Below are positions 18,359 to 56,002 of a DNA stretch of 64,000 nucleotides, piece after piece. Source of the stretch: Syntrophales bacterium (GTDB lineage: Bacteria > Desulfobacterota > Syntrophia > Syntrophales > UBA2210). The stretch covers positions 2,624,001-2,688,000 of the forward strand of contig CAXXKT010000001.1 of assembly GCA_963662405.2 (NCBI GenBank). The letters are read 5' to 3'. The translations under genes and the position numbers were made by a program. The notes beneath the pieces are model-generated. The model ran no database searches. It was given only the letters and a program-made list of their open reading frames with translations, and was not told the origin of the DNA. Within the stretch, counting starts at the first letter, position 1. Each line of letters begins with the position of its first letter.

Positions 18359-18812
18359 GTTACCGATTGTTGACTTCACCTACCTGCTCAGAACAATCCC
18401 AAAAGAAAATCGATTATTACCATTCGAAAGTCTCGACGGAAAAGTTCTTGACACGACAGCATTATGGAGCTAGTGGTTTATATGGTTTATCGGTCTTGAC
18501 TGCTTTGTATATTTTTGTGAGCAGCTATAACCTGGAGGGGATTATGGCCTGATCATCAAAGCCCTGTTTCTCAAAAAGAGATGGGGCTTTTGTTTTTTGT
18601 GAGCAGCCCGGGAGAATATTGCAGTCACCAAGACAAAAAAGGGTATTATACAATTTCTGTATAATACCCCCTCATAAATTGAAGTGCTCTTTTTATATGT
18701 ACGTATGACAATGGCTTGCGATTGCACCCTTAATATGTTTTCGAGGGATCTTATACAGATCTACTAGCTGTGTTTCGTTTTTATACAGAAAACTGTCTAT
18801 TTAATGTTAGCC
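18359..18812 (+). repeat. Module leader copy C ending in attI-like site (GTTAGCC 18806)
   Basis: GTTACCGATT start, TTGACA 18448, ATGGCCTGATCATCAAAGCCC hairpin, TTATACAGAAA block. Confidence 0.85.
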
Positions 18813-18827
18813 AGCAGAGGATAGTTC

Positions 18828-19496
18828 GTGGAAGACATACTCAGCGATCAAGCACTGAAAACAATCCGTGATCGGTACTACGCCGGAGTCACCGCCGCTG
18901 AACTTGGCTTTGACTTCAGCAAAGGTGACGAAGATTCGCTCACTGGTGCGCTAGGACAAGCGCTTCTCACGCCATCCACATTGGTTACGACTAACGCCGA
19001 TACGCAATTTCGATACGCCATTTATCACTACAAGTTGCGCGGACGTGGTCCGAACGCTCCAGAAGCGGAATTAGGGGCAGACGGTATATTCCAGATTGAA
19101 GTCACTGATCGTGATGGAAAGCTGCTCCGCCGAAAAGGGCTTCTATTTCAATCAAAGAAAGAATGGACTGGAAAGGACTCTCTCTTAGGCAAGCAAGCGA
19201 AAAAGATGGCTAAAAAACCAGGGGCAGGTATCGTGATCGATTTTGGCCCGCAAGGCTACAATACATGTCCAGCAAAACTTGCAGCCCACGCAGAGGGTCA
19301 AAGGCATGATATCGATAAAAGGGAGTTTACGAGGCTGGCAAAGACTCTAGGTGACGAATTCGTTCGGTGTCGTGTTGGAGTCGAAGGGCTTTGGTACGAT
19401 CCCGACAGGGAACTTCTTATTGCTCCAGACTCTGATGAACCCGGCATGCACGTCATCGACGCTCGAGTTCAACGCCTAAGCGACCGAATTGGCTAA
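18828..19496 (+). CDS. Gene cassette: PD-(D/E)xK nuclease-like protein
   Basis: E..LGAD...LFQSKK motif; stop overlaps attC. Confidence 0.65.
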   Translation: MEDILSDQALKTIRDRYYAGVTAAELGFDFSKGDEDSLTGALGQALLTPSTLVTTNADTQFRYAIYHYKLRGRGPNAPEAELGADGIFQIEVTDRDGKLLRRKGLLFQSKKEWTGKDSLLGKQAKKMAKKPGAGIVIDFGPQGYNTCPAKLAAHAEGQRHDIDKREFTRLAKTLGDEFVRCRVGVEGLWYDPDRELLIAPDSDEPGMHVIDARVQRLSDRIG

Positions 19497-19547
19497 CAAG
19501 CAAATCCAGCGGACGGCTTTCAGCCGGCACTGATCCGTACGTTATGT
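19491..19547 (+). other. attC site
   Basis: GGCTAAC (complement of GTTAGCC) ... hairpin ... GTTATGT. Confidence 0.85.
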
Positions 19548-19557
19548 GGGAGAACCA

Positions 19558-20097
19558 ATGAAGACGAGATTGCTTTCTTTTATTAATAAACCTTGGTGGA
19601 GTTTTGTCGGATGTGCTTTGGCAATCTTTGCCTTCTTTGGGATTAATAGCGGCAATTTATCTGAAACATTCGGAAAATATGAATGGATGATAAGTGCCTC
19701 TAAAGGGTCACTAATTATTGGAGCCTTTCTATTTTCGATTCATGCTTATATTAGGGCAGAGAAAAATAGAAAAAACTTAATCCAAATCAAATCATCGACT
19801 TACGATGAAGTTTATAAAAAGTTCTCAGACACAATAAATTATGCAGTTGGAAGATACAAGGGGTATAAAGACAAGTTGGATCCTGACAATAGAAAGTATA
19901 CCACTGTTGGTGTCCATGAAATGATAAATGAAGTTAAAAGTGCTAGATTACAGCTTCTCTCAATTTGCGGTGATAATTTGAGATCTATATTATTGAATGA
20001 AGGAACAGACTGGCTAGATGATATAGATAAATTTGGGAGTGTCGCTCCTAACATTATTGAAAAGCTAGCTAAAAATGCATACAAAGATAGAGAATAA
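19558..20097 (+). CDS. Gene cassette: two-TM membrane protein, unknown function
   Basis: GGAGA RBS; between attC sites. Confidence 0.7.
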   Translation: MKTRLLSFINKPWWSFVGCALAIFAFFGINSGNLSETFGKYEWMISASKGSLIIGAFLFSIHAYIRAEKNRKNLIQIKSSTYDEVYKKFSDTINYAVGRYKGYKDKLDPDNRKYTTVGVHEMINEVKSARLQLLSICGDNLRSILLNEGTDWLDDIDKFGSVAPNIIEKLAKNAYKDRE

Positions 20098-20105
20098 TAA
20101 TCATG

Positions 20106-20165
20106 TTATAACAAATCTCTCTAAGAGAACGGCCTGAACGGCCGCCCTTCAGCTTCTCGTTAATG
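20106..20165 (+). other. attC site (degenerate)
   Basis: TTATAAC...CGGCC-TGAAC-GGCCG...GTTAATG. Confidence 0.7.
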
Positions 20166-20800
20166 ATTCCAGAATGATCTTTGCAATTGCTTCAATATTA
20201 ACACTCTTTGCAGAATACCCCGCGGCTTGCCGAGGGGATGAATGCATGCCTTGCCCAGGGGGTTATAAGGGGGAGCGGAGCGTCCCCCTTATCCACAGAG
20301 GCCCTTGTGTGACAACATGATATAAGACTGTCATGACGATTCAGCGAACGAGTCATGCGGTCTACGACACGAGTTACCATCTGGTATGGTGTCCGAAGTA
20401 CCGTAAGAAGGTTTTTGAGCGAGCGGATCTTCGGGAACGAGCGGGACAGCTCATTCGAGAGATCAGCGAGGATTATGGATTTGACGTGATCGAGATGGAA
20501 ATATTTATTTTATCTGTTTCAGGAAGAATCGCGCAGCAAAAGTATTTCTTGGACACTCCTGCGGCGATCCACCCACTCTTCACCTACGAGTGCTCATAAT
20601 AATCCCAGGAGAAAATCGATTATTACTGATTGGAAGTCTCACGGTAAAATCTCTTGACAATACATCATCATAGCGTTAGCTAAGTAGCTGATTTGATCTT
20701 TACGTTTTTTCTGCCTGTGAACAGCTATAACCGGAGGGGATTATGGTCTGATCATCAAAGCCCTGTTTCTTATCAAACGAGAGATAGGGCTTTTGTTTTG
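20159..20800 (+). repeat. Module leader copy D (interrupted by IS200 remnant), upstream of Gabija
   Basis: GTTAATGATTCC start; CAGGAAGAATCGCGCAGCAAAAGTATTTCTTGGACACTCC shared with copy F; TTGACA 20654; hairpin 20757-20800. Confidence 0.85.
20333..20500 (+). pseudogene. tnpA: Truncated IS200/IS605 Y1 transposase with left-end hairpins (~20208-20300)
   Basis: YHLVWCPKYRKK motif; homology ends before HUH motif where leader sequence resumes. Confidence 0.85.
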
Positions 20801-20906
20801 TTGGCGGGAAGGGATGTGAAAAAGAATAGCAAAAGAAATTAAATTGGGAAGTGTTTCTAGTTTTTATGATGGGGTGGGTGTCATTCTAGATATTTAAGGA
20901 AAAATA

Positions 20907-22727
20907 ATGAAAATTCGTCGTCTCAGAATGAAGAACTTTCGGAGTGTTGCGAACGGAGAAATTCTCTTTCCAGGTCATACCGCGGTAATCGGTGGAAATA
21001 GCGTCGGAAAATCGACGATGTGTGAAGCATTGGATTTGTGTCTTGGTCCAGATCGCTTATCCCGTTCCAATCCTATTAACGAACACGATTTTTATCAACG
21101 GCGATACATCAGTGCTGATAGTACGCCAATCCCAATTGAGCTAGAAGTGGTTCTGACAGACTTAACGTCTGATCTTGAAACAAGATTCAGAGCGCACCGT
21201 GAGTATTGGAACACTGAAACCAATTCCTTGCTTGATGAGAATGCAGAGCCTGAGGATACGGAACTTGATAACGTTATTCCTGCCATTAGAATAAAGTTTG
21301 AGGGTCTTTACGACACAGAGGAGGATGAGTTTACAGCGGAAACATTTTTTGCAAGTCCGCCTCCTGAAGATGATGTAAGCCGAGCGAGAGTAAGTCGTTC
21401 TGCAAAACGCCGTTTCGGTTTCATCTATCTGCGTGCTCTGCGCACTGGATCACGTGCGCTCAGTCTCGAACGTGGCTCACTACTCGATATAATTCTCCGT
21501 CTCAAAGATGATGATCGCTCCGCTATGTGGGAACAGACCTTAAATGCTCTTGAAGGTCTTAATCCACCAATCGACAGTATTCCGCAGCTCCGAGACGTGC
21601 TTGATGAGATTGATGGTCGGGTTCGCCGATTTGTTAATATGTCAGAGAATGATCGCGCATTTCAGCTATACCCATCATCTTTGACCCGTGATGATTTGCG
21701 TAAATCCATTACTCTATTCGGGGCGTCCGCCCGATCAAACGCACATGTTCCATACTGGCGTTTAGGGTCAGGTGTGATTAATGCGCTCGTTTTCTCATTG
21801 CTCACATTTATCGCTGAACTAAAAGTAAATGTGATTTTCGCTATGGAAGAACCAGAAATAGCAATACCACCGCATACACAAAGGCGAATTGTCCAATTCC
21901 TGCAAAAAAATATGGATCAATCAATTCTCACGACACATTCGCCCTTTGTTCTCGAACAGTTTAATCCTGAGAACGTTGTATTGCTGGAACGTGATACCAA
22001 CGGTTCACTTGGAGGCCGCCAGATTGAAGTTAGCGGCATCAAGGGTAAAACCTATCGAGGTAATCTACGGCGTATTCTTGCGGAATCAATGCTCGGTAAC
22101 GGTGTCATTTGTGTTGAGGGAGTGTCTGATGCAGAAGTGTTGTATGCGGCTTCAAATGTATTGGAAAGTTACCGTGATGAATTATCGTACACGCCTTTGG
22201 ATTTGTCGGGTGTGACTGTAGTTCAGTGTGAAGGAGATGGAGGTATCCTCCGTTATGGGCAATTTTTCAAAGGCCTCGGGGTGAAAACTTATGCTTTCTA
22301 CGATCTTCAAAAAAATGTAGCAATCAAAAATGATATTGAAGATCTTTTTGATGGTGTATGGGAGCTTGAGCATACTGGCATAGAGTACCTCTTGGCCGAA
22401 GAAACAAATATTGATGCTGTTCGCGCTTTCTTAGAGGACGCTAGTACTTGGGATGATTACCCATCCAACAGAGAAAGACCAGAACTCTACGAGTACGATG
22501 AAGATCTCGATAATGATGATACTCGAGCCATTACCAAACGGGTTCTAAAGCGGAGAAAAGGATCTGGATACGCCGAAAAATTGGTGGAGATGTGTAGCGC
22601 CGAAAATTTGCCGGAGATTATCAGCACCGCACTTAATGCCATTAGCGAAGACCTACCAAATGCCATGGTCAGAGACGATACGGATGGCGGCGACGAAGCC
22701 ACCGAAGACTTGGATACTGATGCATGA
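20907..22727 (+). CDS. gajA: Gabija GajA-like OLD-family ATPase/TOPRIM nuclease
   Basis: GGNSVGKST, LGSG, MEEPE, TTHS, VEGVSD; overlaps UvrD gene. Confidence 0.8.
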   Translation: MKIRRLRMKNFRSVANGEILFPGHTAVIGGNSVGKSTMCEALDLCLGPDRLSRSNPINEHDFYQRRYISADSTPIPIELEVVLTDLTSDLETRFRAHREYWNTETNSLLDENAEPEDTELDNVIPAIRIKFEGLYDTEEDEFTAETFFASPPPEDDVSRARVSRSAKRRFGFIYLRALRTGSRALSLERGSLLDIILRLKDDDRSAMWEQTLNALEGLNPPIDSIPQLRDVLDEIDGRVRRFVNMSENDRAFQLYPSSLTRDDLRKSITLFGASARSNAHVPYWRLGSGVINALVFSLLTFIAELKVNVIFAMEEPEIAIPPHTQRRIVQFLQKNMDQSILTTHSPFVLEQFNPENVVLLERDTNGSLGGRQIEVSGIKGKTYRGNLRRILAESMLGNGVICVEGVSDAEVLYAASNVLESYRDELSYTPLDLSGVTVVQCEGDGGILRYGQFFKGLGVKTYAFYDLQKNVAIKNDIEDLFDGVWELEHTGIEYLLAEETNIDAVRAFLEDASTWDDYPSNRERPELYEYDEDLDNDDTRAITKRVLKRRKGSGYAEKLVEMCSAENLPEIISTALNAISEDLPNAMVRDDTDGGDEATEDLDTDA

Positions 22728-24469
22728 ACGAATGCAATCCAGAAGATAGTTTCGACATTTGCGAAAAGCGACGTGCCATTCTGGAAGGCGATGGGCATAT
22801 GTTGGTTATTGGCGGTCCGGGATCTGGAAAGACAACTATCGCATTACTTAAAGCAAGACGCTACGTATTAGAAAGCTTGATGGCGGAGCAGAGCGTTCTA
22901 TTCCTCAGTTTCTCGAATTCAGCAATCCGTAGGATTCTCGAAAGTGCAGGCGGAATATTGTCATCAGACATTGCCAAGCGCGTTGAAATTAAAACTTATC
23001 ATTCCTTTGCGTGGGATGTTTTGAAATCTCATGGATATCTGACATCAAAAAAGAGGAGGCTAAGTATCGTTTCAGCACAAGATGCTGCCGTAAGAGAGGC
23101 GGGCTTGAATAAAGACTTATGGCTTACCGAGCAGGAACGGTTATACATTGAAGATGGATTAGTGACCTATGACCAGTTTGCCCCTCGTGCCGCTGAAATT
23201 TTGAATCGCTCAAGTGCGGCGAAAGCCTGTTTTAATGCCGCCCATCCCTTAATCCTTGTGGATGAATTCCAAGATACCGATGAAGCCCAATGGGCGCTTA
23301 TTCGTGCTTTGAGTACAGGATCAAGCATTATTGCGCTCGGCGACAAAGAGCAGCGAATATATGAATGGCGCGACGGTGTTTCGGAGCATCGTTTGTCTGA
23401 GTTTGGCGATGAGTTGAACGTCCCAGTATTTGACTTTCAGAATGAAAATAATCGCAGTCCGGCAACTGGTATTGTTGGATATGCCCGATCTCTCTTGTCC
23501 CCCGATGTCGTGCAAGAACTTCCAGCCGATATCGAAAGAAAAGCGTTTCAGCCCGGCATGTTCCCAGTTGGACTTAGGCTTTGCGTTAGCCGAACGTGGG
23601 GTGAAACAAAAAAAAGAGCAGAGAAAAGAGATATCAAAATTGCGATTGCGGCGCGAAGTAAACAGATGGTGAGAAAAATATCTGATGTACTGGCAAAACC
23701 TATCATGATTAAAAATAAAAAGTACAAACCGATTCATCATGACGTATTGTTTGATCAAATGCAGATCGTCTTAGCAGCACGTGTTATCGCAAATGTTATG
23801 GGAAGTACTCATCTCTCATGGGACCAACGTATATCGCAATGTCTTCGTAGAATGGCCGACATGTTACGCGCGGCCAACAACGCCACAAACATCCAAAACT
23901 CTGACGTGTTACAAAACTGGGCGCAAAAATGTGACGACGGTAAGCCTCCTAAGACTAAATGTGTTGCGGCTCTTGTCGAAATTATTGAAGCTATTGAGAA
24001 TGATGGATTTTCAGGCTCTCCGACCAGAGATTGGCTAATGGTCCGACAGGCATTTGAGAGGGCGAGCGTTGACCACTTGACGAAGACAGCTGAGTTTGCT
24101 CGTTACTTACGACTACTTCGGCGCGGTTCATTAATAGAAGAGGAGCTAACAAGTTTGTGGCGGACGAGTGGTAATTATCTAGGCGCTGAGGAGGCTTTAG
24201 ATCGAGCCATTCTACAAGATCAGCTACTCGATTCTCGTAAAGAGTCAGCGAGTATTTCAGTGATGACCATGCACCAATTGAAAGGCCGAGAGTATGACGG
24301 AGTGTTGCTTGTTGAAGACCAATATAATAACTTTAGGGGACGGGATGTGAAACGGCCTTACATGGAAACCCGTCGCCTGTTACAGGTTTCTTTGACGCGA
24401 GCGAAACATTTCGCATTGGTTCTGTCAGCAACGAAAAATGCGACTTTGGATGTGATCTTTGATAATTAA
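22724..24469 (+). CDS. gajB: Gabija GajB-like UvrD helicase
   Basis: GGPGSGKT, VDEFQD, GDKEQRIY, TMHQLKGREYD, SLTRA. Confidence 0.8.
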   Translation: MNECNPEDSFDICEKRRAILEGDGHMLVIGGPGSGKTTIALLKARRYVLESLMAEQSVLFLSFSNSAIRRILESAGGILSSDIAKRVEIKTYHSFAWDVLKSHGYLTSKKRRLSIVSAQDAAVREAGLNKDLWLTEQERLYIEDGLVTYDQFAPRAAEILNRSSAAKACFNAAHPLILVDEFQDTDEAQWALIRALSTGSSIIALGDKEQRIYEWRDGVSEHRLSEFGDELNVPVFDFQNENNRSPATGIVGYARSLLSPDVVQELPADIERKAFQPGMFPVGLRLCVSRTWGETKKRAEKRDIKIAIAARSKQMVRKISDVLAKPIMIKNKKYKPIHHDVLFDQMQIVLAARVIANVMGSTHLSWDQRISQCLRRMADMLRAANNATNIQNSDVLQNWAQKCDDGKPPKTKCVAALVEIIEAIENDGFSGSPTRDWLMVRQAFERASVDHLTKTAEFARYLRLLRRGSLIEEELTSLWRTSGNYLGAEEALDRAILQDQLLDSRKESASISVMTMHQLKGREYDGVLLVEDQYNNFRGRDVKRPYMETRRLLQVSLTRAKHFALVLSATKNATLDVIFDN

Positions 24470-24470
24470 A

Positions 24471-24561
24471 GTATAACGTCCAAGGTCACTTGCGCCGCCT
24501 AAGACCCTTCCGCGTCAGCGCCGCAGATGTTAACGGCGTCAAGTGAACCGTCTGGTTCGGC
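24471..24561 (-). other. attC site (minus strand)
   Basis: GCCGAAC..GGTT[C]ACTTG[A]CGCCG..CGGCGCAAGTGACC..GTTATAC; extrahelical bases set orientation. Confidence 0.85.
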
Positions 24562-24566
24562 AATTC

Positions 24567-25010
24567 CTATAAATGCTTTATTTCAATGGCACCAAATTGA
24601 TCTTTTAAATATTCACTTACCAAACGACGATGGCATTTTTCAGGAGTAGGTTCACTACACAAAAAACAAGCATTATTAAGTTCTTCAAGAGATATTTTTT
24701 TCTCGATTTTGCGTTCTTTAATCAGTTTGCTAAAACGCTGTACATACTCATCCCAATCAATTTGCTTTTTCTTGTATGCATCAAGAATTTCCTTTGTTGG
24801 TGCAAAATCGGGCATGTGTTTATAGTCACAGTCGCAAAGCTCTCTTAAAAAGAAGATGAGGTCATCTCGTTTTGCAAAACCAGCAAGTTGAGAAACATTG
24901 TTCAACCGAATATCGATGAGTTTAGTAACGCCGGCGTTACGTATTTTGGAGAAGAATGTTTTCGCGCTTTTTTTTGTGAATCCAATAGTATACAGGTTTG
25001 TTTTTGACAT
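24567..25010 (-). CDS. DUF488-family protein
   Basis: YTIGF, IDIRL, LCSE..PEKCHR. Confidence 0.8.
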   Translation of the reverse strand: MSKTNLYTIGFTKKSAKTFFSKIRNAGVTKLIDIRLNNVSQLAGFAKRDDLIFFLRELCDCDYKHMPDFAPTKEILDAYKKKQIDWDEYVQRFSKLIKERKIEKKISLEELNNACFLCSEPTPEKCHRRLVSEYLKDQFGAIEIKHL

Positions 25011-25618
25011 TATTTATCCTTGTACTCGGATGTCGGTTCAGCTGTTTCGTATGCAATTTTTTCACCTTGCCGCATGTATGCATCATTCAACCTTTGTTGC
25101 TCGCTACGAAACATTTCCGGTTGATTTAAACCAAAAATTTTAAGCAACCTCTGCTCACTATCTTTGTGGTCTTCGGTTATCCAATTACTCATAATATGTT
25201 TGATATTAATTCCCCTATCAGACAGATTCCGACAAATCAAAATAGTTCTATGGCATGTAATGGGGTCTTTTTCTGCGCACATAAGGGCTATGCGATACTT
25301 TTCCATGCCTTTAGTTATTCTTTTTAATCCTTCCTTGAATTTGGGACTTTCCGCCACAAGGGTGAAATCTACTTTCCCATTAACATAACAAGATGGATCT
25401 TCAACTCGTGCCCCGCACAAGTCTCCTAAAAACACGTAAGCGATACCATGTTTATTGAGAAATCTTGAAAGGTTTTCTTTGTTGAATTCCGGCTTAAACT
25501 GGCTATATGGCGATGACCGAACATCTGCGACCGCAGTTATTTTGTGTTTATTCAAAACACGCAGGAATGAATCAAGTATGTGGGGGGAGTAGCCTATTGT
25601 GAATAATACATTGCCCAT
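25010..25618 (-). CDS. DUF488-family protein
   Basis: FTIGYS, DVRSSP, LMCAEKDPITCHR. Confidence 0.82.
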   Translation of the reverse strand: MGNVLFTIGYSPHILDSFLRVLNKHKITAVADVRSSPYSQFKPEFNKENLSRFLNKHGIAYVFLGDLCGARVEDPSCYVNGKVDFTLVAESPKFKEGLKRITKGMEKYRIALMCAEKDPITCHRTILICRNLSDRGINIKHIMSNWITEDHKDSEQRLLKIFGLNQPEMFRSEQQRLNDAYMRQGEKIAYETAEPTSEYKDK

Positions 25619-25630
25619 AATTTACCACTA

Positions 25631-26329
25631 TTACGAATAACATCTTATTTCTTCAAGATATTCAGGGAATAAATAGATTCCATTTACTTGTAACCAATAT
25701 CCGTTTCTACCGTCTGGGGATGAATACCCACGACTTAGACCGACCCTTATAAAAACTTCAGATTGCGAATGAATGAAGTGGTTAAGGTTAGAAAAATTAC
25801 CGCCCCTGTTGTTTTCAGCGTAATTGTAAAATCCTAAATCAGTTATACCGAGATACCGGAACTCCTGACCTGAACTATCTGTAACTATAATTTTGATTTT
25901 CCCTGGATTAAAAGAGTCTGGCACGATGCTGACATCTCGTGGGTCAACTGAAATTGTTATGATTGATTTCTGGGGTGGGTTGTCGATAGGTATATATTTC
26001 TGCCCGGAAGGAATAGCAACAGAAAAACCTTCTTGGACATTTGGGCTTTCAGTCGCCATTAATACCGACTTAAATTCCTCAGTGCTACATGGACCATTAA
26101 AAGTTAGACTTCCCCTATAACTTCTGTCTTCAGTATGTGGAGCAGAACACGACATAGGCACAAAATTACCCTCCAATTTGGCACCTGGAAGGATATTCAA
26201 GCTGCGACATTCGGTTGTAGCTAGGTACGGCAAAGGCCTAATGCATTCATTTGTATCTGGATTTATCCCTGCAATACAAACAATATCCTGCCTCGAAAAT
26301 CTGGTAAGATCTGTAATGATTATTCCCAT
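25631..26329 (-). CDS. Dual OB-fold-like protein
   Basis: VCIAGI..IRP, PHTED, ITD, RVGLSR motifs; typical partner of DUF488 genes. Confidence 0.6.
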   Translation of the reverse strand: MGIIITDLTRFSRQDIVCIAGINPDTNECIRPLPYLATTECRSLNILPGAKLEGNFVPMSCSAPHTEDRSYRGSLTFNGPCSTEEFKSVLMATESPNVQEGFSVAIPSGQKYIPIDNPPQKSIITISVDPRDVSIVPDSFNPGKIKIIVTDSSGQEFRYLGITDLGFYNYAENNRGGNFSNLNHFIHSQSEVFIRVGLSRGYSSPDGRNGYWLQVNGIYLFPEYLEEIRCYS

Positions 26330-26341
26330 AATTTATTTCCT

Positions 26342-26360
26342 GCCGAACAATTAGTATACC
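26342..26360 (-). other. attI-like entry site of minus-strand cassette
   Basis: GGTATAC-TAATT-GTTCGGC; GTTCGGC complements the cassette's GCCGAAC; no attC hairpin upstream. Confidence 0.5.
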
Positions 26361-27249: not shown

Positions 27250-27258
27250 GAAGGTTTC

Positions 27259-28007: not shown

Positions 28008-28009
28008 GC

Positions 28010-46864: not shown

Positions 46865-46868
46865 TTTT

Positions 46869-46964: not shown

Positions 46965-46980
46965 GGAAAAGGTAACAAAA

Positions 46981-47700: not shown

Positions 47701-47712
47701 ATTTTGATTGCC

Positions 47713-47767
47713 TGCTAACCACAAAATTCGGGGGACGGATTCCCGCCCCTGATTTTAGGCGTTGCTG
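47713..47767 (+). other. attC site
   Basis: TGCTAAC..AAAATTCGGGGGACGG..CCGCCCCTGATTTT..GTTGCTG. Confidence 0.8.
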
Positions 47768-47806
47768 ATTACCAATTGATCTTGCCCCGAAAAAGTGGAC
47801 ACCCCA

Positions 47807-48655
47807 CTAAGTTACACACGCTTTTCGTTCAAACTCAGCGGGAGAGCAATAATTCAATGATGAATGTCTTCTAACGCAATTATAGAAAACTTCGATATAT
47901 TCGAATATGCTCCCGCGAGCTTCCTGTCTTGTCTGATACTTCTCAAAATAAACAAGCTCCGTCTTTAAGGTATGGAAAAACGATTCCATAAGAGCATTGT
48001 CGTAACAATTCCCCGAAGAGTTCATGCTCTGAATAAAACCATATTTCTCCATCAGCCCCTGAAAAGCATAGCTGGTATATTGAGTTCCACGATCTGAATG
48101 AAACATAACACCAGCTTTGGGTCGCCGCTGCCTGATCGCCTTGTGCAAGGCATCTGCAAGAATCTTATGACTCAATCTGTTATCCATCGACCATCCAATA
48201 ATCTTACGATTGAAAACATCCAGGATCGCTGCCAGATAAAGCCAACCCTCTCTCGTCCAAATAAGGGTAATATCAGAAACCCACACCTTGTTGGCCACAT
48301 CTGTCGAAAATCTCCGATTTAAAAGATTATCCGCCACTAAAAACTCATGCTTGGATTTTTTGGTGGCCTTGAACCTGCGTTTCGTCTTTGCCTTAATCCC
48401 ATGACTCTTCATCAGGTGAGCCACTCGTTTCCTGCTACACTTAATCCCGTGGGCCTGAAGTTCCGCTGTCACCCTCGGGCTACCATATGTGCCGCGACCC
48501 TTTATGAAAGCGTCCCGAATATACATCAGCAACCGCTCATTCTCTCTCTGGCGGTCACTCTTGCTGTGTTTCCCCCATATGTAATAACCGCTCCTGGATA
48601 CCCCCAGCACTCGGCACATCTTCTTCACCGAAAATTCGGAACGGTGATTTTCCAT
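47807..48655 (-). CDS. IS3 transposase OrfB (DDE)
   Basis: WVSDIT, HSDRGTQY, DNALMESFF. Confidence 0.92.
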   Translation of the reverse strand: MENHRSEFSVKKMCRVLGVSRSGYYIWGKHSKSDRQRENERLLMYIRDAFIKGRGTYGSPRVTAELQAHGIKCSRKRVAHLMKSHGIKAKTKRRFKATKKSKHEFLVADNLLNRRFSTDVANKVWVSDITLIWTREGWLYLAAILDVFNRKIIGWSMDNRLSHKILADALHKAIRQRRPKAGVMFHSDRGTQYTSYAFQGLMEKYGFIQSMNSSGNCYDNALMESFFHTLKTELVYFEKYQTRQEARGSIFEYIEVFYNCVRRHSSLNYCSPAEFERKACVT

Positions 48656-48666
48656 GAACTCATACT

Positions 48667-48972
48667 TTACTTTGGGTGTTTCGAGAAGATGGCCAACGCT
48701 TTTTTTAAGATTTCCCTCTCCTCCCTTAAGCTCTCATTCTCCCGCCGCAACCGACGAAGTTCCTCCTCAGGTGCCTTCAAATGACCTTTCCCGGGAAAAG
48801 CTTGCTCCATGTCCGCCCGATATTTACGCCTCCACTGATGAAGCAGGTTTTTATGAACATTCAAATCCTTAGCTAGATCACTTACAGAACGTTTACCTTC
48901 ATCCATTAACCGAATCGCCTCATACTTAAACTCCCGATCAAAATACCGCTTATCCTTCCCATTAACCATGAC
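48667..48972 (-). CDS. IS3 transposase OrfA
   Basis: EFKYEA HTH, EREILKKA. Confidence 0.88.
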   Translation of the reverse strand, partial: VMVNGKDKRYFDREFKYEAIRLMDEGKRSVSDLAKDLNVHKNLLHQWRRKYRADMEQAFPGKGHLKAPEEELRRLRRENESLREEREILKKALAIFSKHPK

Positions 48973-49591
48973 ATGCCTCCTCGTTACTCTATGTCTATAA
49001 GAGAAACTCTTCGGTATGTCCACTAAATCGGGGGAAGACCAAATAGTAATCTGCTACGAACAGGCCCATTCAAGTTTTGTTTGTTACAGGAAGAATCGCG
49101 CAGCAAAAGTATTTCTTGGACACTCCTACGGCGATCCTTCCACTCTTCACCTACAAACACTCAGAACAATGCCATAAGAAATTCATTGATTACTGATTGA
49201 AGGTTTCGCAGTGAAATCTCTTGACAATACGTCATCATAGAGTTACCTAAATCGTGGTTTTGATCTTGACATTTTTTATGCTTGTGCTGGCTGTACCAAT
49301 TAGGATTATGATCTGATCATTGAAAGCCCTGTTTCTCAAAAAGAGAGATGGGGCTTTTTTGTTTTTTTGGGCAACTTAGAAAATATCGGGGTTACGTGAA
49401 CGCGGAAAAGAGTATTACATAGTTTCTGTATAACACACCTCAATAAACGAAGGTTTTCATAATAATCTTTGTATTACAGTAAGTTGTAATGATTTTTTCC
49501 GCAATTGAAATATGTATTACGTAGCTGTTTCAGCTATGTTTGGTTTTTATACAGAAACAATATAAACACTGTTGCTGCATAAGGAGTGACC

Positions 49592-50479
49592 ATGAAAATC
49601 CCCGTAAGCATAGAACCCGATGAAGAAGGTTATATTGGAAGAGAATGTCCAGTTTGTAAGAAATATTTTAAAGTTAAATTCGGTACTGGGTTGCATGGAG
49701 TGACTGATTGCTATTGCCCATATTGTAATCATAAAGATTCGCAAGATAATTTTTGGACAAGACAACAGATTGAATATGCAAAATCGATAGCCCTTAATCA
49801 AGTCACCAGTGATCTCCTGAAGAGCCTAAAAAAGTTAGAGCGTAGACCAAAACCAAATCAACTTATTTCTATCGGTATAACTGTCAAAGGACAACCAACA
49901 CCGATTATTTACTATTCCGAAGAAGAACTAGAGCAGAAGGTCACGTGTAATCAGTGTACTTTAGAATATGCTATTTATGGAGCATTTGGTTATTGCCCTG
50001 ATTGTGGCATTCATAATTCAAAGCAAATTGTATCTGCAAACTTTGATCTCATATTAAGAATTTTGGCATTATCAGTTAATGCGGAAGGTGACATCAAATC
50101 AAAGTTAATCGAAAACTCTCTAGAAGATGCAGTATCAGCCTTCGACGGTTTTGGCCGTGAACATTACTCAAGTGCATACCCCCAAATATCATTTCAAAGT
50201 ATATCGTTTGCTCAGACAAAAATTCTAACTGATTCCCAGGTTGATATATCTTCTGGCTTGTCTCCAAAGGAATGGGATTTTGTAGTGGAGCAATTTCAGA
50301 AAAGGCACTTGATAGCACACAAAATGGGTATAATCGATGACGAGTTTATAAGAAAAACTGGAACATCATCTTCTTTGGTTGGTAGGAAGGTTTCAATTAC
50401 AGAAGAAGATGTCCGAAAATTTATTTCTTATTTGTTGGTCATAACAGATAATTTACTTACAGGTATTCCACGCAGCTAA
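49592..50479 (+). CDS. Gene cassette: multi-CxxC Zn protein with C-terminal HEPN-like motif
   Basis: Four CxxC pairs, RHLIAH. Confidence 0.7.
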   Translation: MKIPVSIEPDEEGYIGRECPVCKKYFKVKFGTGLHGVTDCYCPYCNHKDSQDNFWTRQQIEYAKSIALNQVTSDLLKSLKKLERRPKPNQLISIGITVKGQPTPIIYYSEEELEQKVTCNQCTLEYAIYGAFGYCPDCGIHNSKQIVSANFDLILRILALSVNAEGDIKSKLIENSLEDAVSAFDGFGREHYSSAYPQISFQSISFAQTKILTDSQVDISSGLSPKEWDFVVEQFQKRHLIAHKMGIIDDEFIRKTGTSSSLVGRKVSITEEDVRKFISYLLVITDNLLTGIPRS

Positions 50480-50532
50480 CAACAGCATCCAGACCGACGC
50501 GCTACGTGCGCGGCTGATGCTGAGCGTTCGGT
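50474..50532 (+). other. attC site
   Basis: AGCTAAC..CAGCATCCAG..CTGATGCTG..GTTCGGT. Confidence 0.88.
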
Positions 50533-50545
50533 TTAGATAAAAACT

Positions 50546-51103
50546 ATGCCTCTAAATCATACATCTCAGTTTTCTGAATTAACAGACAAGCAATTTAACC
50601 TAATTGGCAAAATTGTGGTTGAATGGGCCAATGTCGAATTTATGCAAAAACTAATATTAAGCAGGCTTCTATTTTCGGCGGAATTCATTAGTCGGACATA
50701 TACAGATCGAATGAGTGCCGTGAGGATTCAGGACGCAATAAAGGAATCCGTTGATCTTCATCGTCACAGATACTGCGGAGAGATCATAAGTGAAGACATA
50801 TTGTCTGAAATTGAAAAAGTGAATAATGAAGTTCATGATGCAAGAGCACATAGAAATAGATTCGCACACTTTTGCTGGACTCGTAACACAGATGAAGAAA
50901 TTTTTGGTACAAATTTTTCTGCAGGTTTACCAGGTAGCAAAAAATATAGAAAATCCGACATTGTTATAACGAACAAAGAGTTGGAACAGCTCTATAAGGA
51001 ATCATATAATTTGGTGGATAAAATCAATCAACTCATTGAGAAGCTTCCAGAGATTGAGGAAGATGATTTAACAAAAAGACCAAAAACCGAACAACGGCAT
51101 TAA
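50546..51103 (+). CDS. Gene cassette: HEPN-like protein
   Basis: IG..VV.WA.VE, RNRFAH. Confidence 0.7.
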   Translation: MPLNHTSQFSELTDKQFNLIGKIVVEWANVEFMQKLILSRLLFSAEFISRTYTDRMSAVRIQDAIKESVDLHRHRYCGEIISEDILSEIEKVNNEVHDARAHRNRFAHFCWTRNTDEEIFGTNFSAGLPGSKKYRKSDIVITNKELEQLYKESYNLVDKINQLIEKLPEIEEDDLTKRPKTEQRH

Positions 51104-51148
51104 GGGAGGCGGCACAAAAGCCGCCGCGCCTTATGCCGGGCGTTCGAC
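51086..51148 (+). other. attC site
   Basis: ACCGAAC..CGGCATTAAGG..CCTTATGCCG..GTTCGAC. Confidence 0.88.
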
Positions 51149-51163
51149 ACTATAGGAGAAACG

Positions 51164-52723
51164 ATGAAAACTCTAAAATTACGAGATCTTCAGATAGGTA
51201 ATATTGATGCAAAAAATGAGCTTCTCACTGGTTCAGAACAAGAAATTGATTTTTTCCGCAAGGGCTTCTGTCTTCCACCTAATATAGTGCTCCAGGATTT
51301 TTTAGGTTCAAAAAAATATTATGTGACAGGCTTAAAGGGAATCGGAAAAACAGCACTCTTAAGATATATAGCACTTGAAGCTGAAAGACAGTTTGGTGCC
51401 ACATGTTCATTTATCTTGTTTAAGAGCGATGTAAAAGAGCAAGATCGTAAAGACATCTGTCGCGTCGCTAGGGCCGAATTAATTGAAAAAAATCTCGAAG
51501 ATTATGATGGAAATGATTTTGAAGTTGTTTGGAAATGGTTTTTGCATAGAAAGATAGTTGATACTATTCGAGAATGTAATTTAAAGTTATTTCAAGATGA
51601 CGACAATTTTAGAAAATATGAGAAGTGTGTAACCGCTCCAAAACTTGATGAAAAATCATCCGGGATTAAACGACTAATACCCAACCTAAAAAAGGGTTCT
51701 ATAGAAATTAGTGAAAATCCGAAGATTGGTTTGGATTTTGATTGGGAGGATAAAGGTAAAACTCGTGTTAAGTTTCATAGTCTAACCAAACAAGCTGATC
51801 AACTTTTTCAGGAATTAAGGCCAGCAGATGGACACCTTCGTCTGTTTTTAGATGAATTGGAATTAAGCTTAGGCTCCCAAAAACAGTATAAAAGAGATGC
51901 AACCCTGATCAGAGATTTGATTATAGCTGTTGAGCAAATCAATTCAGTTGCAAAAAAAATGAGATATAACTTAACCATCTATGCTGGAATTCGTTCTGAA
52001 GTTCTTTCCGCAATTGAATCAGTCGGTAAAGAAATAAACAAAATTATTGGTGATTTCGGAAGCCAAATTGTATGGCATCAGTCCGGTTCTGATAATGAAA
52101 ACCACCCGTTGCTCAACATCATTGTTCAGAGAATATCTATCTCGGAAAACACTAATAAATCAGAGCGTGGCAACCTAAAATCTATAATTTGGAATAAATA
52201 TTTTCCAATATCAATTCAGGGAATTAAGTCCGAGAAATATATCCTTCACAATTCATGGTATCGACCTAGGGATATGGTTCGACTTCTTAATCTGGCAAGG
52301 GATCAATTCCCTGATGTAAGTGGGTTCACTCAAAGAGTTTTCGATGGAACACGAAAGCAATACAGTCAAGAAAGCTGGATAGAATTAGCAGAGGAATTAA
52401 GTGTCAAATATTCTCAACAAGAATTAGTCGCCATTCAACAGATATTCAATGGATATAAAAGAGAATTTTCTTTTATAGACCTTCAGGGTCATATCGAAAA
52501 AAGGCGGAAATTATATCCTGCTGTTGATAAGGCTCTGGTATCACATGCAATTGGCGAAATATTAACTGATTTATACAATATTGGATTTGTAGGTAATGTA
52601 ATTTACTCGGGTAGGAGAGGAATTAGTCCTAAAATGCGCTTTAGCTTTAGAGGTGATCCCAATTTGATTATAGAAGAAAAGATCACTGTACATAAAGGTT
52701 TGTATTCCTTTTTTACATTATGA
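51164..52723 (+). CDS. Gene cassette: P-loop ATPase (Sll1717/FunZ-like)
   Basis: G..DA..E, GLKGIGKT, FLDELE, RPRD. Confidence 0.75.
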   Translation: MKTLKLRDLQIGNIDAKNELLTGSEQEIDFFRKGFCLPPNIVLQDFLGSKKYYVTGLKGIGKTALLRYIALEAERQFGATCSFILFKSDVKEQDRKDICRVARAELIEKNLEDYDGNDFEVVWKWFLHRKIVDTIRECNLKLFQDDDNFRKYEKCVTAPKLDEKSSGIKRLIPNLKKGSIEISENPKIGLDFDWEDKGKTRVKFHSLTKQADQLFQELRPADGHLRLFLDELELSLGSQKQYKRDATLIRDLIIAVEQINSVAKKMRYNLTIYAGIRSEVLSAIESVGKEINKIIGDFGSQIVWHQSGSDNENHPLLNIIVQRISISENTNKSERGNLKSIIWNKYFPISIQGIKSEKYILHNSWYRPRDMVRLLNLARDQFPDVSGFTQRVFDGTRKQYSQESWIELAEELSVKYSQQELVAIQQIFNGYKREFSFIDLQGHIEKRRKLYPAVDKALVSHAIGEILTDLYNIGFVGNVIYSGRRGISPKMRFSFRGDPNLIIEEKITVHKGLYSFFTL

Positions 52724-52734
52724 GTGTAAAAAAT

Positions 52735-52807
52735 GTCGAACATCAGCTTGGAGAAGGATACTCATTACGCTGCGCTTCATTCGCACCTCTCAAGCTGGGC
52801 GTGAGAT
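52735..52807 (+). other. attC site with mutated R' (GTG)
   Basis: GTCGAAC..CAGCTTGGAGAAGG..CCTCTCAAGCTG..GTGAGAT. Confidence 0.85.
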
Positions 52808-52820
52808 TTCGGAGGAAGAT

Positions 52821-53150
52821 ATGGCACTACCTAGCTATAAGGATATCGTCGAACTCCTTAAGAAGGGAGCAACGATTGAGGCTCAAGAAAAGATTATGGA
52901 GCTCCGCGAAGCAGCTCTTGCGCTTCAAGAGGAGAACATTAATTTAAAAAACAAGGTCTTGGAGCTCCAGGGAAAAGTTCGTAAATTAGAATCATTTGAA
53001 GGTGAGCCATGTCCTAAATGTCGAAAACCAGCTTGGGTTGTGGAGTCAAGCAAGCCGGACAGTACGCTTGGTGACCTAGGTGTTATCCGTCGAGTTTATC
53101 GCTGCACTGAATGCGGGTTCTCCGAATCACAATTGGTGACGCCAAAATGA
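52821..53150 (+). CDS. Gene cassette: coiled-coil + Zn-ribbon small protein
   Basis: Heptads then CPKC..CTEC; GGAGG RBS. Confidence 0.75.
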   Translation: MALPSYKDIVELLKKGATIEAQEKIMELREAALALQEENINLKNKVLELQGKVRKLESFEGEPCPKCRKPAWVVESSKPDSTLGDLGVIRRVYRCTECGFSESQLVTPK

Positions 53151-53151
53151 A

Positions 53152-53214
53152 ATCTAACCCCACGGTCAATCGGGACGCGCCAAAAGCGGCGCGCCCCTTA
53201 CCTTCACGTTAGGC
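53152..53214 (+). other. attC site
   Basis: ATCTAAC..GGGACGCGCC..GGCGCGCCCC..GTTAGGC. Confidence 0.88.
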
Positions 53215-53439
53215 TAAATTTTAAGTCTCATGCAATTATTACTTAATGTTAGCGTATTTTGACCCGATTATGCGAATCCAGTTTGTCGGTTACAATTGAA
53301 ATGGCAATGATCACACGGTTATTGTTGCCGCCGTGGCATGCCTTGCTGTTTGGCAATTTTTGGATAAGCAGGAAAAGGCAACCGTCACAGATGGTGGGCA
53401 ATAATCGATAAAATAGCGTATAGCCAAGCTTGGCGGAAT

Positions 53440-55935
53440 ATGAGTAACGATTTAATAAGAAACAACCATTACGTCCCTATTTGGTATCAAAAGAATTTCT
53501 TATCTTCAAAGAAAGCGGCTTTCCATTACCTCAACCTTTATCCGGATAAAATTGAATTACCTAACGGCAAAGTAAATTTTAAAAATCAGATATGTTGGCC
53601 ATTCTCTCCTAAACAGTGTTTCTATCAAACTGATTTATACACGACTTCTTTTCTGGGTTATCGAAACGACGAAATCGAACGTTACCTTTTTGGTAAAATA
53701 GATAGCGATGGATCAATAGCCATTAAAGCATTAATGGACCTGAATTATCGTTTATTCCATGACTACTTTCTCAAAGTTTTTGAATACATGGATATTCAAA
53801 AGCTTAGAACACCCAAAGGACTAACATGGTTAAGTCAAAAGTTTTCAATGATTACCCATAATCAGCTTTTGTTTGAGATGCAGAAGATACGAAGGCTGCA
53901 TTGTACATTATGGGCAGAAGCTGTGAAAGAAATTGTTTTGGCCAATAATTCCAAGATAAAGTTTATCGTGTCCGACCATCCAGTGACAGTCTATAATGCG
54001 GCTTGTCCGCCCAACTCAACTGAATGCAAATATCCAAACGACCCTAGAATTGAAATGCAGGGAACACAAACGATTTTCCCTCTGGATTCCAATCGATGTC
54101 TAATTTTAACAAATTTGGATTATGCTAAAAACCCCAGTTTGCAGAACCTTAAAAAATATAGACCAAATCCAAATCCTTTTCGAAACACAATGATCAGATA
54201 TGATAACATCATTAATGAGAGAGAATTATCAGAAGATGATGTTGCGCATATCAACTGGATAATTAAGTCTCGCGCATCACAATATTTAGCTGCCGAAGAA
54301 AAGGAGTGGCTATTCCCAGAAAACAGGGTTTGTCCCGATTGGGCCAAATGCGGTCAAGTGCTAATACCTCCCAGTAATAAGCTTTATAAATTTGGAGGTG
54401 AGATATACGTTGGATACGAAGATGGTTCATCTGCATACTTTGACCAATATGGACGAAGAGAACCAGAATCGGAATTTTTAAGGAAAAAGCAAAAAGCTGG
54501 AAAAATAGGAGCAAATGACCCTTGCCCATGCGGAAGCGGAAAAAAATATAAGAAATGTTGCAGAGATAAACCTGTTGATGAACGGCCCGCCAGTGACGTT
54601 CTAAGTATTCGTGAGCGCAACCTATTTTTTCTCGACATCGTTACAGGAATTTTGGGGGTGAATAGGAGCGGAGACTTAGACTGGGATGAGCTACGTAGAA
54701 ATTTAACCAATGAAAAAATTGCAGAGATATATAAGGCGGTCGCAGCATTATGGCCGCCATCTACTGATTTATTTGCACTTCTCCCAAGACCAGACTCTAA
54801 TGTCCTGAGAGCTTTGTTTACAGGTATAATTGACCCACGTGTGACGTATATAAGCATGGCCTGTTTTTCCTTTTATGCAGACGAGATTTTAGTTCAAAGT
54901 CCTTTTGCAAACCCACACAACATGAGGGAAGAATTTAATCCTATAAAAAACCCTGGGAAATATAGGGATGAAACAATAAAAAACCTGTTTTTCTTATTTT
55001 TAATAATTCCGTGGATTGAAATTGGCGTGATTAATTTATTCCCAGACCCGTGGAATTTTAATTTCGCATTGATGGAGACCGTTATGGAGGCAGCTGAAAA
55101 AAGGAAAGATTCGATAACCTTCGATGAAAAATCATTCAAACAAATGGAAAAATTGTTCTTTGAAGACTATAAACGAACTTTATTCACAATGCCGGATAAA
55201 AACCTTCGGGCTTTTATTCGCCATACATCTCAAGACCTCTCAGAAGAAGAAATATCTAAGCTTATCGAATATACTAAACGAATGAATGCTCAAGATCCGC
55301 TTGTGGATCTGAATCCTGATAAGCCAGGAAAAGAATCAAGCCAGATGCTAATATCACGCACAACTCCAAACATGGAAATGACAATGCTTCTGGCACAAGC
55401 AACTGGTTCAATGATAATAACAGACAATTCTTTCAGGTGGTTTGAAATATGCTCATCAATTCCTTACTACTATGGCCTCAGCAAAAACCCCTGGGCTAAA
55501 TTTGAAACCTTCGCATCTGATTATCCTGTTCAGTTTCCATTGATCGTTGAACAACTATCCCACATGCAGGAGCTAAAGAAATCAGAATTCATGTCTGTAA
55601 AGAGGGTGCTAAAACGATTGTGGAATTCCATTAATGCGGATCAGGCACCAGATAATGCTCAGATTGATCATTTGCAAGAGGAGTTTGATATCGCTCAAGA
55701 GGTAATGTCTAAATCAATCGAAAAATTGGTCCAAAAAGGTGAAAAGGCTACCGACACATCTCCTTACCCAAGGCCAATGAACATAGACGCAAAATTGAGT
55801 TGCAAAATATCACCGATTGGGCATATCAATAATTTGGTATATCGATTATTGATAAGCTATGCGGGACATGATAAGTACCTTAAATCGCTTCCATTGTCTC
55901 TGTATGTAGAATATGGAAACAAGGAGAGAGCCTAA
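53440..55935 (+). CDS. Gene cassette: DUF4238 + SEC-C motif protein
   Basis: HYVP.WY..F, SDHPV, GANDPCPCGSGKKYKKCC. Confidence 0.8.
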   Translation: MSNDLIRNNHYVPIWYQKNFLSSKKAAFHYLNLYPDKIELPNGKVNFKNQICWPFSPKQCFYQTDLYTTSFLGYRNDEIERYLFGKIDSDGSIAIKALMDLNYRLFHDYFLKVFEYMDIQKLRTPKGLTWLSQKFSMITHNQLLFEMQKIRRLHCTLWAEAVKEIVLANNSKIKFIVSDHPVTVYNAACPPNSTECKYPNDPRIEMQGTQTIFPLDSNRCLILTNLDYAKNPSLQNLKKYRPNPNPFRNTMIRYDNIINERELSEDDVAHINWIIKSRASQYLAAEEKEWLFPENRVCPDWAKCGQVLIPPSNKLYKFGGEIYVGYEDGSSAYFDQYGRREPESEFLRKKQKAGKIGANDPCPCGSGKKYKKCCRDKPVDERPASDVLSIRERNLFFLDIVTGILGVNRSGDLDWDELRRNLTNEKIAEIYKAVAALWPPSTDLFALLPRPDSNVLRALFTGIIDPRVTYISMACFSFYADEILVQSPFANPHNMREEFNPIKNPGKYRDETIKNLFFLFLIIPWIEIGVINLFPDPWNFNFALMETVMEAAEKRKDSITFDEKSFKQMEKLFFEDYKRTLFTMPDKNLRAFIRHTSQDLSEEEISKLIEYTKRMNAQDPLVDLNPDKPGKESSQMLISRTTPNMEMTMLLAQATGSMIITDNSFRWFEICSSIPYYYGLSKNPWAKFETFASDYPVQFPLIVEQLSHMQELKKSEFMSVKRVLKRLWNSINADQAPDNAQIDHLQEEFDIAQEVMSKSIEKLVQKGEKATDTSPYPRPMNIDAKLSCKISPIGHINNLVYRLLISYAGHDKYLKSLPLSLYVEYGNKERA

Positions 55936-56002
55936 CATCAGCTTGGAGAAGGATACTCATTTCGCTGCGCTCCACTCGCACCTCTCAAGCTGCGCGTTAC
56001 TG
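55930..56002 (+). other. attC site
   Basis: GCCTAAC..GTTACTG; near-identical to 52735-52807. Confidence 0.9.

Follow-up and report, generated by a model that had tools for sequence, protein, structure and literature searches.

Integrase-less cassette arrays with attI-like entry sites on a defective prophage and a satellite-like element of a Syntrophales bacterium

We analysed a 64,000-nt stretch of the genome of a Syntrophales bacterium (C1:2624001-2688000, called the window; genome G000, 3.8 Mb on three contigs). It carries four arrays of integron gene cassettes on two mobile elements that sit in tandem at a tRNA-Arg gene. None of the arrays is accompanied by an intact integron integrase gene (intI). 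Twelve attC sites lie in arrays of two, one, four and five, entered at 18806, 26348 (minus strand), 44809 and 49571, exactly where a first-pass annotation of the sequence had placed them. The entry site of each array together with its upstream attI-like region is called a dock here, and the repeat that precedes three of the docks is called the leader. From homology to intact integrons, we consider it likely that these arrays are integrons that lost intI and kept attI, and that a chromosomal IntI still loads the three plus-strand docks in trans.

Four cassette arrays and their leaders

The features of the arrays are the following (positions are those of the window unless a contig is named; ORF, open reading frame).

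18419..18596, plus strand: leader 1, with a TTGACA promoter-like box, a ribosome-binding site (RBS) followed by ATG, one codon and a stop, and an intrinsic terminator hairpin at 18558-18590
18610..18812, plus strand: array 1 dock, putative co-oriented-class attI region with its crossover at 18806
18806..19547, plus strand: cassette A1-1, ORF 18828-19496 with no family match, attC 19491-19547, ends pairing 7/7
19541..20165, plus strand: cassette A1-2, ORF 19546-20097 with no family match, attC 20106-20165, ends pairing 5/7, followed by a shared 3' trailer
20625..24469, plus strand: leader 2 and gajAB (gajA 20907-22727, gajB 22724-24469), not a cassette
24471..26348, minus strand: array 2, one three-gene cassette, attC 24471-24561, ends pairing 7/7
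26346..26524, minus strand: array 2 dock, putative attI and upstream region of the canonical (divergent) integron class, crossover at 26348
26483..26545, plus strand: first 21 codons of a long divergent IntI, the rest of the gene being absent
26871..26931, plus strand: a 13th attC, left over from a two-gene toxin-antitoxin-like cassette that has lost its dock and 5' part in the window
44557..44723, plus strand: leader 3
44724..44815, plus strand: array 3 dock, putative short, one-base-deleted attI of the intI1 type, crossover at 44809, the weakest of the four assignments
44809..47767, plus strand: array 3, four cassettes, attC 45272-45330, 46097-46164, 46869-46964 and 47713-47767, ORFs 44832-45269, 45350-46102, 46184-46864 (DUF4145/PD-T7-4-like) and 46981-47700
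47768..49050, minus strand: IS3-family element inserted in the array 3 trailer
49192..49362, plus strand: leader 4, terminator hairpin at 49322-49358
49363..49577, plus strand: array 4 dock, putative host attI of the intI2 type, crossover at 49571
49571..56002, plus strand: array 4, five cassettes, attC 50474-50532, 51086-51148, 52735-52807, 53152-53214 and 55930-56002, ORFs 49586-50479 (PDC-M14A-like), 50546-51103, 51164-52723 (Sll1717-family ATPase), 52821-53150 and 53440-55935 (DUF4238/SEC-C)

Sites were called with a weight matrix plus arm pairing (score of at least 35, both strands), not with IntegronFinder's covariance model; a first heuristic recovered one of the twelve window sites and was dropped. 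The scan returns 15 calls in the window against 0, 1, 0, 0, 1 and 0 in six shuffles, a difference that is overstated because the matrix was trained partly on these sites. The 15 calls comprise the twelve sites, a degenerate attC at 6714-6804 and two opposite-strand calls that are probably the same palindromes. Folding energy alone is a weak criterion, with z ≤ -2.0 for four of the twelve sites in a run in which one site was mis-bounded. The count of the first-pass annotation was incomplete, as it missed both the degenerate site and the 13th attC, whose cassette is found whole, with its dock, in the paralogous prophage E2 at C1:1955932-1956700. Two attC of array 4, at 52739-52802 and 55934-55997, are near-identical (94%), and the other sites are diverse.

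The ORFs are bounded as is typical for gene cassettes, with a 5' GTT core that is complementary to the R'' box of the cassette's own attC. Complementarity of the 5' heptamer is 7/7 in six of the twelve cassettes, 6/7 in three and 5/7 in two, which agrees with the earlier claim that most cassettes pair their two ends; the first cassette of array 4 pairs only if a one-base gap is allowed. PADLOC models of defence systems or candidates are matched by three of the twelve cassettes (PDC-M45B/C, PD-T7-4 and PDC-M14A), and a fourth gives a match only via its SEC-C motif. The cassette of array 2 encodes a dual-OB protein and two DUF488 proteins, the latter being the PADLOC candidate PDC-M45B/C.

At the three plus-strand arrays, the leader lies upstream at a distance of 86-210 nt from the entry point. 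In the window, copies are located at 6957-7138, 18419-18596, 20625-20799, 44557-44723 and 49192-49362, with a degenerate copy near 11510-11765. Genome-wide we find 62 nhmmer matches, 43 of them at E<1e-12, ahead of many kinds of genes. The leader is thus not tied to arrays; leader 2 heads the Gabija-like pair gajAB (PADLOC, GajA 1e-224, GajB 4e-185), and no dock motif was found after it. The stop codon of gajB abuts the array 2 attC on the opposite strand. The common architecture is a TTGACA box, a purine-rich RBS-like run and a terminator hairpin, with ATG-codon-stop in 39 of 53 aligned copies. The box is conserved in most of the 53 and the terminator follows it; a consensus scan called no sigma-70 promoter there. 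In Rfam the leader has no credible match to a family (best E=0.008, 28 bits compared with a cut-off of 39 bits), and the only matches in the window at gathering score are three tRNAs. The 13-bp quasi-palindrome of the leader has five matches outside leaders, none of these in an evident promoter, which gives no support for an SOS box. From its conserved architecture, this element of about 60 copies is a candidate attenuator or operator.

Entry sites and the integrons of the host

In the whole genome, the IntI profile TIGR02249 (cut-off 265 bits) passes at two loci only, intI1 at C1:2211990-2212934 (471 bits, intact) and the frameshifted intI2 at C1:30608-31553. IntI1 retains the catalytic motifs, and its sequence contains an insertion which we take to be the one typical of IntI. 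The nearest of these genes is 412 kb away from the window, and the arrays themselves have no IntI sequence other than the 21-codon start at array 2, in line with the first-pass annotation. No attI of the window therefore adjoins an intI. Arrays 1, 3 and 4 with their two, four and five attC sites qualify as attC site clusters without integron-integrases (CALIN), and array 2 with one attC is a single attC site lacking an integron-integrase (SALIN) by the IntegronFinder definition.

The intI1 gene is followed by attI and 18 called units. In both host integrons and in those of the related genomes G019, G005 and G012, attI and the array lie downstream of intI and run in the same direction, and we call this arrangement co-oriented. 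Diverged leader copies stand ahead of both intI1 and intI2 and, in G019 and G005, ahead of the intact intI. This kinship is based on a multiple alignment and on loci L034, L052 and L053; the first nhmmer leader profile did not detect the intI leaders. The order leader, intI, attI explains the earlier observation that the leader of the plus-strand arrays occupies the place of intI. Perfect end matches are found for 10 of 18 cassettes in the host arrays and for 6 of 12 in the window arrays, and as both are alike in this respect we make no claim on their relative age. Between intI1 and its attI lies an IS3 copy (C1:2212962-2214235) identical to window 10182-11455. A 140-bp gene-less cassette is repeated through the host arrays (C1:2214391-2230607 and C1:20653-20792) and also heads an intI-less dock at C2:287957.

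The docks of the plus-strand arrays resemble the attI regions of this co-oriented type to different degrees. For array 4, window 49409-49573 matches, at 94% identity over 165 nt, the sequence that separates the intI2 stop codon from the first cassette of that integron, and the dock shares 205 of 211 positions, across the leader-attI junction, with an intI-less twin at C2:287955-288165. The array 1 dock is 90% identical over 170 nt to a site in G025 that follows a leader and a 44-codon C-terminal remnant of IntI. Its 31-letter core is found exactly in seven metagenome contigs, three of which repeat two G025 loci and two of which have less than 80 nt upstream. Behind this core stand seven different cassette heads, that of the window included, and the DNA examined holds no intact intI. 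The core of array 3 shares 10 of 12 bases with the intI1 attI and ranks 238th of 98,023 GTT sites with an ungapped held-out attI profile. An attI at the head of the array is thus indicated by intI-linked homology for arrays 1, 2 and 4, and for array 3 by the 10/12 core only.

Related genomes retain intermediates of the deletion. G019 has a leader, the last 52 codons of IntI, attI and a cassette. G025 has a leader, the C-terminal IntI remnant and attI, and this intermediate carries the array 1 core exactly. The leader is fused to attI in G011, G005, G025 and G020. Because of the leaders of intI, the intermediates and these fusions, we read the dock as a leader-intI-attI unit minus intI. Of 36 genomes of the same family, 27 were matched by a leader-plus-dock query, and the docks appear to be a family-wide deletion derivative that is also present in the core chromosome. 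At the end of most host-type orphan arrays stands a common trailer that starts with GTTAATGATTAC or a closely similar sequence (of 13 pattern matches, 12 look genuine). It could derive either from the right half of an ancestral attI or from the start of a former first cassette. In 38 genomes a dock never lies directly upstream of this trailer, and attC-like or unrelated sequence is found there instead.

Array 2 has neither a leader nor a host-type attI. Intact integrons of G132 and G078 match its dock at 78% identity over 180 nt, and six loci in five relatives share 81-85% identity with the 200 nt upstream. This homology stops at the crossover, and a different gene follows at each of the six loci. 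The divergent 21-codon IntI start is identical at 12 of 21 positions to the N-terminus of a 452-aa IntI (locus L213) and lies at the expected distance. This IntI type is 49% identical to host IntI1, and its full gene was not found in the genome. We had considered array 2 as an insertion at a secondary site (rank 1394 of the 98,023 GTT sites), which is overturned by the upstream homology and the IntI start.

The 20-letter core of array 2, with at most one mismatch, is present in 68 of 239 genomes of the order at up to nine copies per genome, with 0 for the reversed control. These genomes include G106, G124, G128, G146 and G160, mostly with no adjacent intI. We surveyed 35 loci, five from the upstream homology and 30 returned by the core search. 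Three have intI (two near full length, one internally deleted) and two have no upstream sequence, so that intI is missing within about 1.1-1.7 kb upstream at 30 of 33 evaluable sites. An attC call lies within 1.5 kb in 15 of the 35, nine of these with a 7/7 end match. Array 2 is more likely a separate deletion derivative of the canonical divergent class, and a relic in this genome.

By this homology, all four entry sites are best described as putative attI copies left after intI loss, with array 3 as the weakest assignment. The earlier description of attI-like sites thus stands, while the likeness is to the attI classes of the host and not specifically to attI1, as had been suggested.

The carrier elements and the distribution of docks

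The two elements are bounded by three copies of a 48-49 nt att core repeat, the 3' half of tRNA-Arg, at 2372-2419, 44026-44074 and 63234-63282.

2343..2419, plus strand: tRNA-Arg(TCT), whose 3' 48 nt are the att core common to both elements
2372..44074: element 1, a 41.7-kb defective prophage, from att repeats and PHROGs matches
42862..43983, plus strand: phage-type tyrosine integrase of element 1, with a score far below the IntI cut-off
44027..63282: element 2, a 19.3-kb satellite-like integrative element in tandem at the tRNA-Arg att, from att repeats and backbone genes
57341..57721, minus strand: 126-aa helix-turn-helix (HTH) protein with weak matches to terminase small subunit/excisionase profiles (phrog_57, E=1.2e-4; phrog_66, E=3.4e-3)
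57996..59600, minus strand: Prim-Pol/helicase replication gene of element 2
61813..63003, minus strand: phage-type tyrosine integrase of element 2, with a score far below the IntI cut-off

Element 1 encodes an integrase, regulators, a primase, two methylases, terS and terL. Portal, capsid and tail genes were not found in it, so it lacks the head and tail genes of an intact prophage. Genome-wide, the portal and capsid queries from the paralogous prophage E3 match only E3 itself (C1:2335604-2378514, 42.9 kb), which is complete, lambda-like and has portal, major head/protease and tape measure genes. Element 1 (E4 in this series) shares its state with E1 (C1:228516-268462, 39.9 kb) and E2 (C1:1935737-1974617, 38.9 kb). 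All three lack head and tail genes, sit at different tRNAs, keep terS and terL and have sizes near that of E3, and differing cargo replaces their morphogenesis region. A fifth, more decayed copy of 31.9 kb lies on C2. The leftmost 4.3 kb of element 1 (window 2651-6972), which include an AMP-dependent ligase-like gene, match at 98.8% identity the left end of E1, which sits at another tRNA-Arg; this segment ends in the degenerate attC 6714-6804 and the shared trailer.

The backbone of element 2 comprises an integrase, a sigma54-type AAA+ protein, Prim-Pol and small ORFs. We compared it with phage-inducible chromosomal islands (PICI) using four screening criteria (PMC6092414). None of its eight backbone ORFs is a structural or lysis gene by PHROGs, the weak terS-like match of the HTH protein aside. 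Of the PICI modules, integrase and Prim-Pol are clear, and the sigma54-type AAA+ protein and the weakly matching HTH protein are candidates for the regulator. Its 19,256 bp, which include a 1.3-kb insertion sequence (IS), exceed the PICI size of about 12-15 kb, and its tRNA-Arg att also holds element 1 in tandem, where the att sites of PICIs are never occupied by prophages. As element 2 departs from two of the four criteria, we label it satellite-like only, a label that describes its predicted gene content. Of the carriers named by the first-pass annotation, the prophage is thus confirmed as a defective one and the satellite is weakened to this label. The terS-like ORF gives no pairwise alignment with the prophage terS. 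No convincing excision joint of an element or a cassette was found in Logan contigs of one sample, which may be the source, at depth 2-8 (X1-X3); a 44081-63293 joint was not counted as excision of element 2, one side being only 22 letters.

Further features lie next to the arrays. The left att duplication carries a whole tRNA-His (2372-2535 and 63235-63398), and thus the genome has two tRNA-His copies. An AbiEii/AbiEi toxin-antitoxin pair (11791-13699) and a 1303-aa SMC-like ATPase with a partial LmuB match (14143-18054) are located outside cassettes. IS elements are IS630 at 8809-10038, IS3-family copies at 10182-11455 and 47768-49050 and a truncated IS200 tnpA at 20333-20508, which is cut off where the leader-associated segment begins.

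Genome-wide we count 17 candidate orphan docks. Seven fall within a first list of nine att-bounded elements (5.9% of the genome), and two more in tRNA-Lys and tmRNA islands raise this to 9 of 17 in islands that cover about 7.7% of the genome, on a list that covers only the tRNAs tested. Prophages E1 and E2 carry docks with other cassettes. The G025 dock of the array 1 type is part of a 2-3 kb islet among housekeeping genes. Docks are enriched on mobile elements and not exclusive to them. G020, which belongs to another genus, carries at the same tRNA-Arg att an element of 36 kb that encodes a related Prim-Pol (47%) and has a leader-attI dock with unrelated cassettes; the docks of G020 point the opposite way to those of the window. 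At the attI crossover of a G020 dock sits exactly an IS91-like unit of recombinase plus transposase (L094:13590-15781). Among 14 neighbourhoods of 11 Prim-Pol relatives (L091-L105 less one overlap), leader, dock and attC occur together only in G020 and the leader alone in G014, in stretches that may not span whole elements. Viral contigs gave no match to the host-type dock, the leader, the array 2 dock or the Prim-Pol. The 19 matches of viral contigs to a looser dock pattern were dismissed as chance, as they come with neither leader nor intI.

Probable recombination in trans, its rivals and known systems

The homology and distribution of the docks are consistent with the following model. The parent of arrays 1, 3 and 4 is a co-oriented integron with leader, intI, attI and cassettes in one direction, as seen in this genome and in two relatives. 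Deletion of intI fused the leader to attI and gave a dock of 250-400 bp, as the homology to intI-linked sites shows, and docks were then copied to many places, mostly islands and prophages, as their distribution shows. Cassettes from host or incoming arrays may be inserted at the G/TT of the dock by attI x attC recombination, which we infer from integron chemistry and the twin docks, and they might be transcribed from the leader by read-through of the terminator. The prophage and the satellite-like element would be carriers of docks and not their inventors.

The key evidence for insertion after intI loss is the twin dock of array 4. The two docks share the deletion junction and have no cassette in common, and the first unit of the twin on C2 is identical at 140 of 140 positions to a unit of the intI1 array, though the twin dock is of the intI2 type. 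The simplest reading of the same junction with different cassettes is that at least one twin gained cassettes after the loss of intI. A second intI-less dock, at C2:54199, holds an 880-bp cassette that recurs, 100% identical and interrupted by an IS, in the intI2 array; this dock is preceded by an IS end and not by a leader. The first-pass annotation proposed to examine cassette variation among related elements and would have taken arrays captured en bloc with invariant content as evidence against its reading. Related docks hold different cassettes, and that objection fails.

Several observations weigh against loading in trans. By blastn (E<1e-8), no second copy of any of the 12 window cassettes exists in the genome, and no convincing empty dock was found in 339 genomes with one 20-letter pattern, the single match being chance as judged by its context; the trailer search in 38 genomes gave none either. 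In the near-closed, dock-bearing genomes G020 (two contigs) and G030 (one contig), no IntI scores above the cut-off, so docks persist also where a helper is missing. The array 1 core differs from both host attI cores and ranks 104th of the 98,023 GTT sites. Non-cognate attI/IntI pairs are reported to be generally inefficient (PMC8946536), and this weighs on arrays 1 and 2. Crossover triplets are mutated to ATT at 46158 and to GTG at 52801, and IS elements have invaded the surroundings of the arrays. The terminator stands between the leader promoter and attI, and no sigma-70 call was obtained at the TTGACA box. Finally, a shared leader-attI junction could also be explained by homologous exchange onto existing arrays.

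Three other explanations have to be weighed. The arrays might be frozen relics, each loaded by its own intI before this was lost and then moved en bloc with its island, with no insertion in trans now. We regard this as unlikely for the set as a whole, and it is our preferred explanation for array 2. It is favoured by the IntI remnants at several docks, by the near-closed genomes with docks and no IntI, by the lack of cassettes common to window and host arrays, by the mutated triplets and by one cassette that prophages E2 and E4 share vertically and that is decayed in E4. It is opposed by the twin docks with the same junction and unrelated cassettes, of which one equals a unit of the host integron, and by the second fully identical cassette common to an orphan dock and the intI2 array. 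Alternatively, host IntI could have dropped cassettes at short secondary sites (attG) behind a convenient promoter, in which case the entry sites would not be attI. IntI inserts at 5'GWT3' sites genome-wide, which is proposed as the origin of small CALINs and SALINs (10.1101/2022.09.11.507474), and the short, degenerate dock of array 3 would suit such an event. In contrast, the homology of arrays 1, 2 and 4 to intI-linked attI regions extends over 165-200 nt, stops at the crossover and goes beyond a GWT consensus, and many genomes have the same site with other cassettes behind it. From this homology, attG insertion is largely refuted for these three arrays, and overall we consider it very improbable. 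Loading by the tyrosine integrases of the elements themselves, or by another non-IntI recombinase, is hardly credible. Each element has an integrase and docks occur in genomes without IntI; against this, the two integrases score only 49 and 28 bits with the IntI model, adjoin the tRNA att repeats and match phage integrases, and docks are also found outside such elements.

We therefore retain recombination in trans as the probable explanation for the three plus-strand docks. The landing pads and the chromosomal IntI postulated by the first-pass annotation have their counterparts in the docks and the intact intI1. Docks are not peculiar to these two elements, however, and borrowing of host IntI is doubtful for array 2, because its cognate integrase was not found in the genome.

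CALINs are usually taken for decaying leftovers or stray insertions. If recombination in trans is correct, a copied deletion module that removes intI and keeps attI would make many CALINs live insertion points and turn one integrase into the centre of a dispersed, multi-site integron. Elements may then gain genes, partly anti-phage, without an integrase of their own, and islands mobilised by phages could trade defence cassettes with the dispersed integron. More tentatively, and in our view doubtfully, the satellite-like islands and head-less prophages of this family could act as shuttle integrons, whose minimal leader-attI dock samples the cassette pool, anti-phage cassettes included, of each host with an IntI and which a helper phage moves on. 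In this case the leader, with its start-codon-stop before a terminator, would be an attenuator by which all docks are switched on together. The head-less prophages would then have swapped morphogenesis genes for docked cargo and kept terS/terL, and their near-constant size (38.9-41.7 compared with 42.9 kb) together with terS/terL would look as if packaging continues. The window is a compact test set of four docks, two with a cognate host integrase, one diverged and one of a foreign class as built-in negative control. Annotation tools that do not consider attI miss a common state, attI without intI, as seen at 30 of 33 sites of the array 2 class.

Comparison with known systems places the window arrays with CALINs and SALINs, which likewise have attC sites with no neighbouring intI (PMC4889954; 10.1101/2022.09.11.507474). 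According to these sources, half of CALINs occur in genomes that encode IntI, and loss of intI is a proposed origin; mobilisation of CALINs in trans is stated as possible in a further study (10.1101/2025.06.18.660453). The CALIN definition is silent on attI, and here every array keeps one by our assignment. In contrast to CALINs in general, we find a reproducible and copied deletion junction and 17 candidate docks in one genome. In open PMC and bioRxiv we found no description of docks that keep attI and occur in many copies, nor of such docks in satellites; the phage CALIN tables of PMC9892861 may hold further cases.

The closest single case is the Shewanella cryptic prophage M16-3 (Qi et al. 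2023, PMC9892861), which is also a defective prophage with an attI-headed CALIN. M16-3 also has a complete integron with intact intI, whereas the elements of the window have no intact intI, carry docks of two integron classes and include one that is satellite-like. The host integrons are similar in orientation to integrons with inverted integrase, e.g. of Treponema (PMC4889954). Unlike in these, a promoter-terminator leader heads intI here and survives its deletion. Gram-negative PICIs (PMC6092414) share with element 2 the integrase, Prim-Pol, small HTH regulators, tRNA att repeats and the lack of structural genes, and the lambda-like complete prophage E3 is a possible helper. A clear AlpA or Rpp (for the latter see PMC6739421) was not found in element 2. 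In contrast to PICIs, element 2 is 19.3 kb long instead of 12-15 kb, has its att in common with a prophage, and its cargo arm consists of two cassette arrays. From their sequence features, the window arrays plausibly belong to the known CALIN class as a variant that has kept attI, to which recombination in trans would add a further step.

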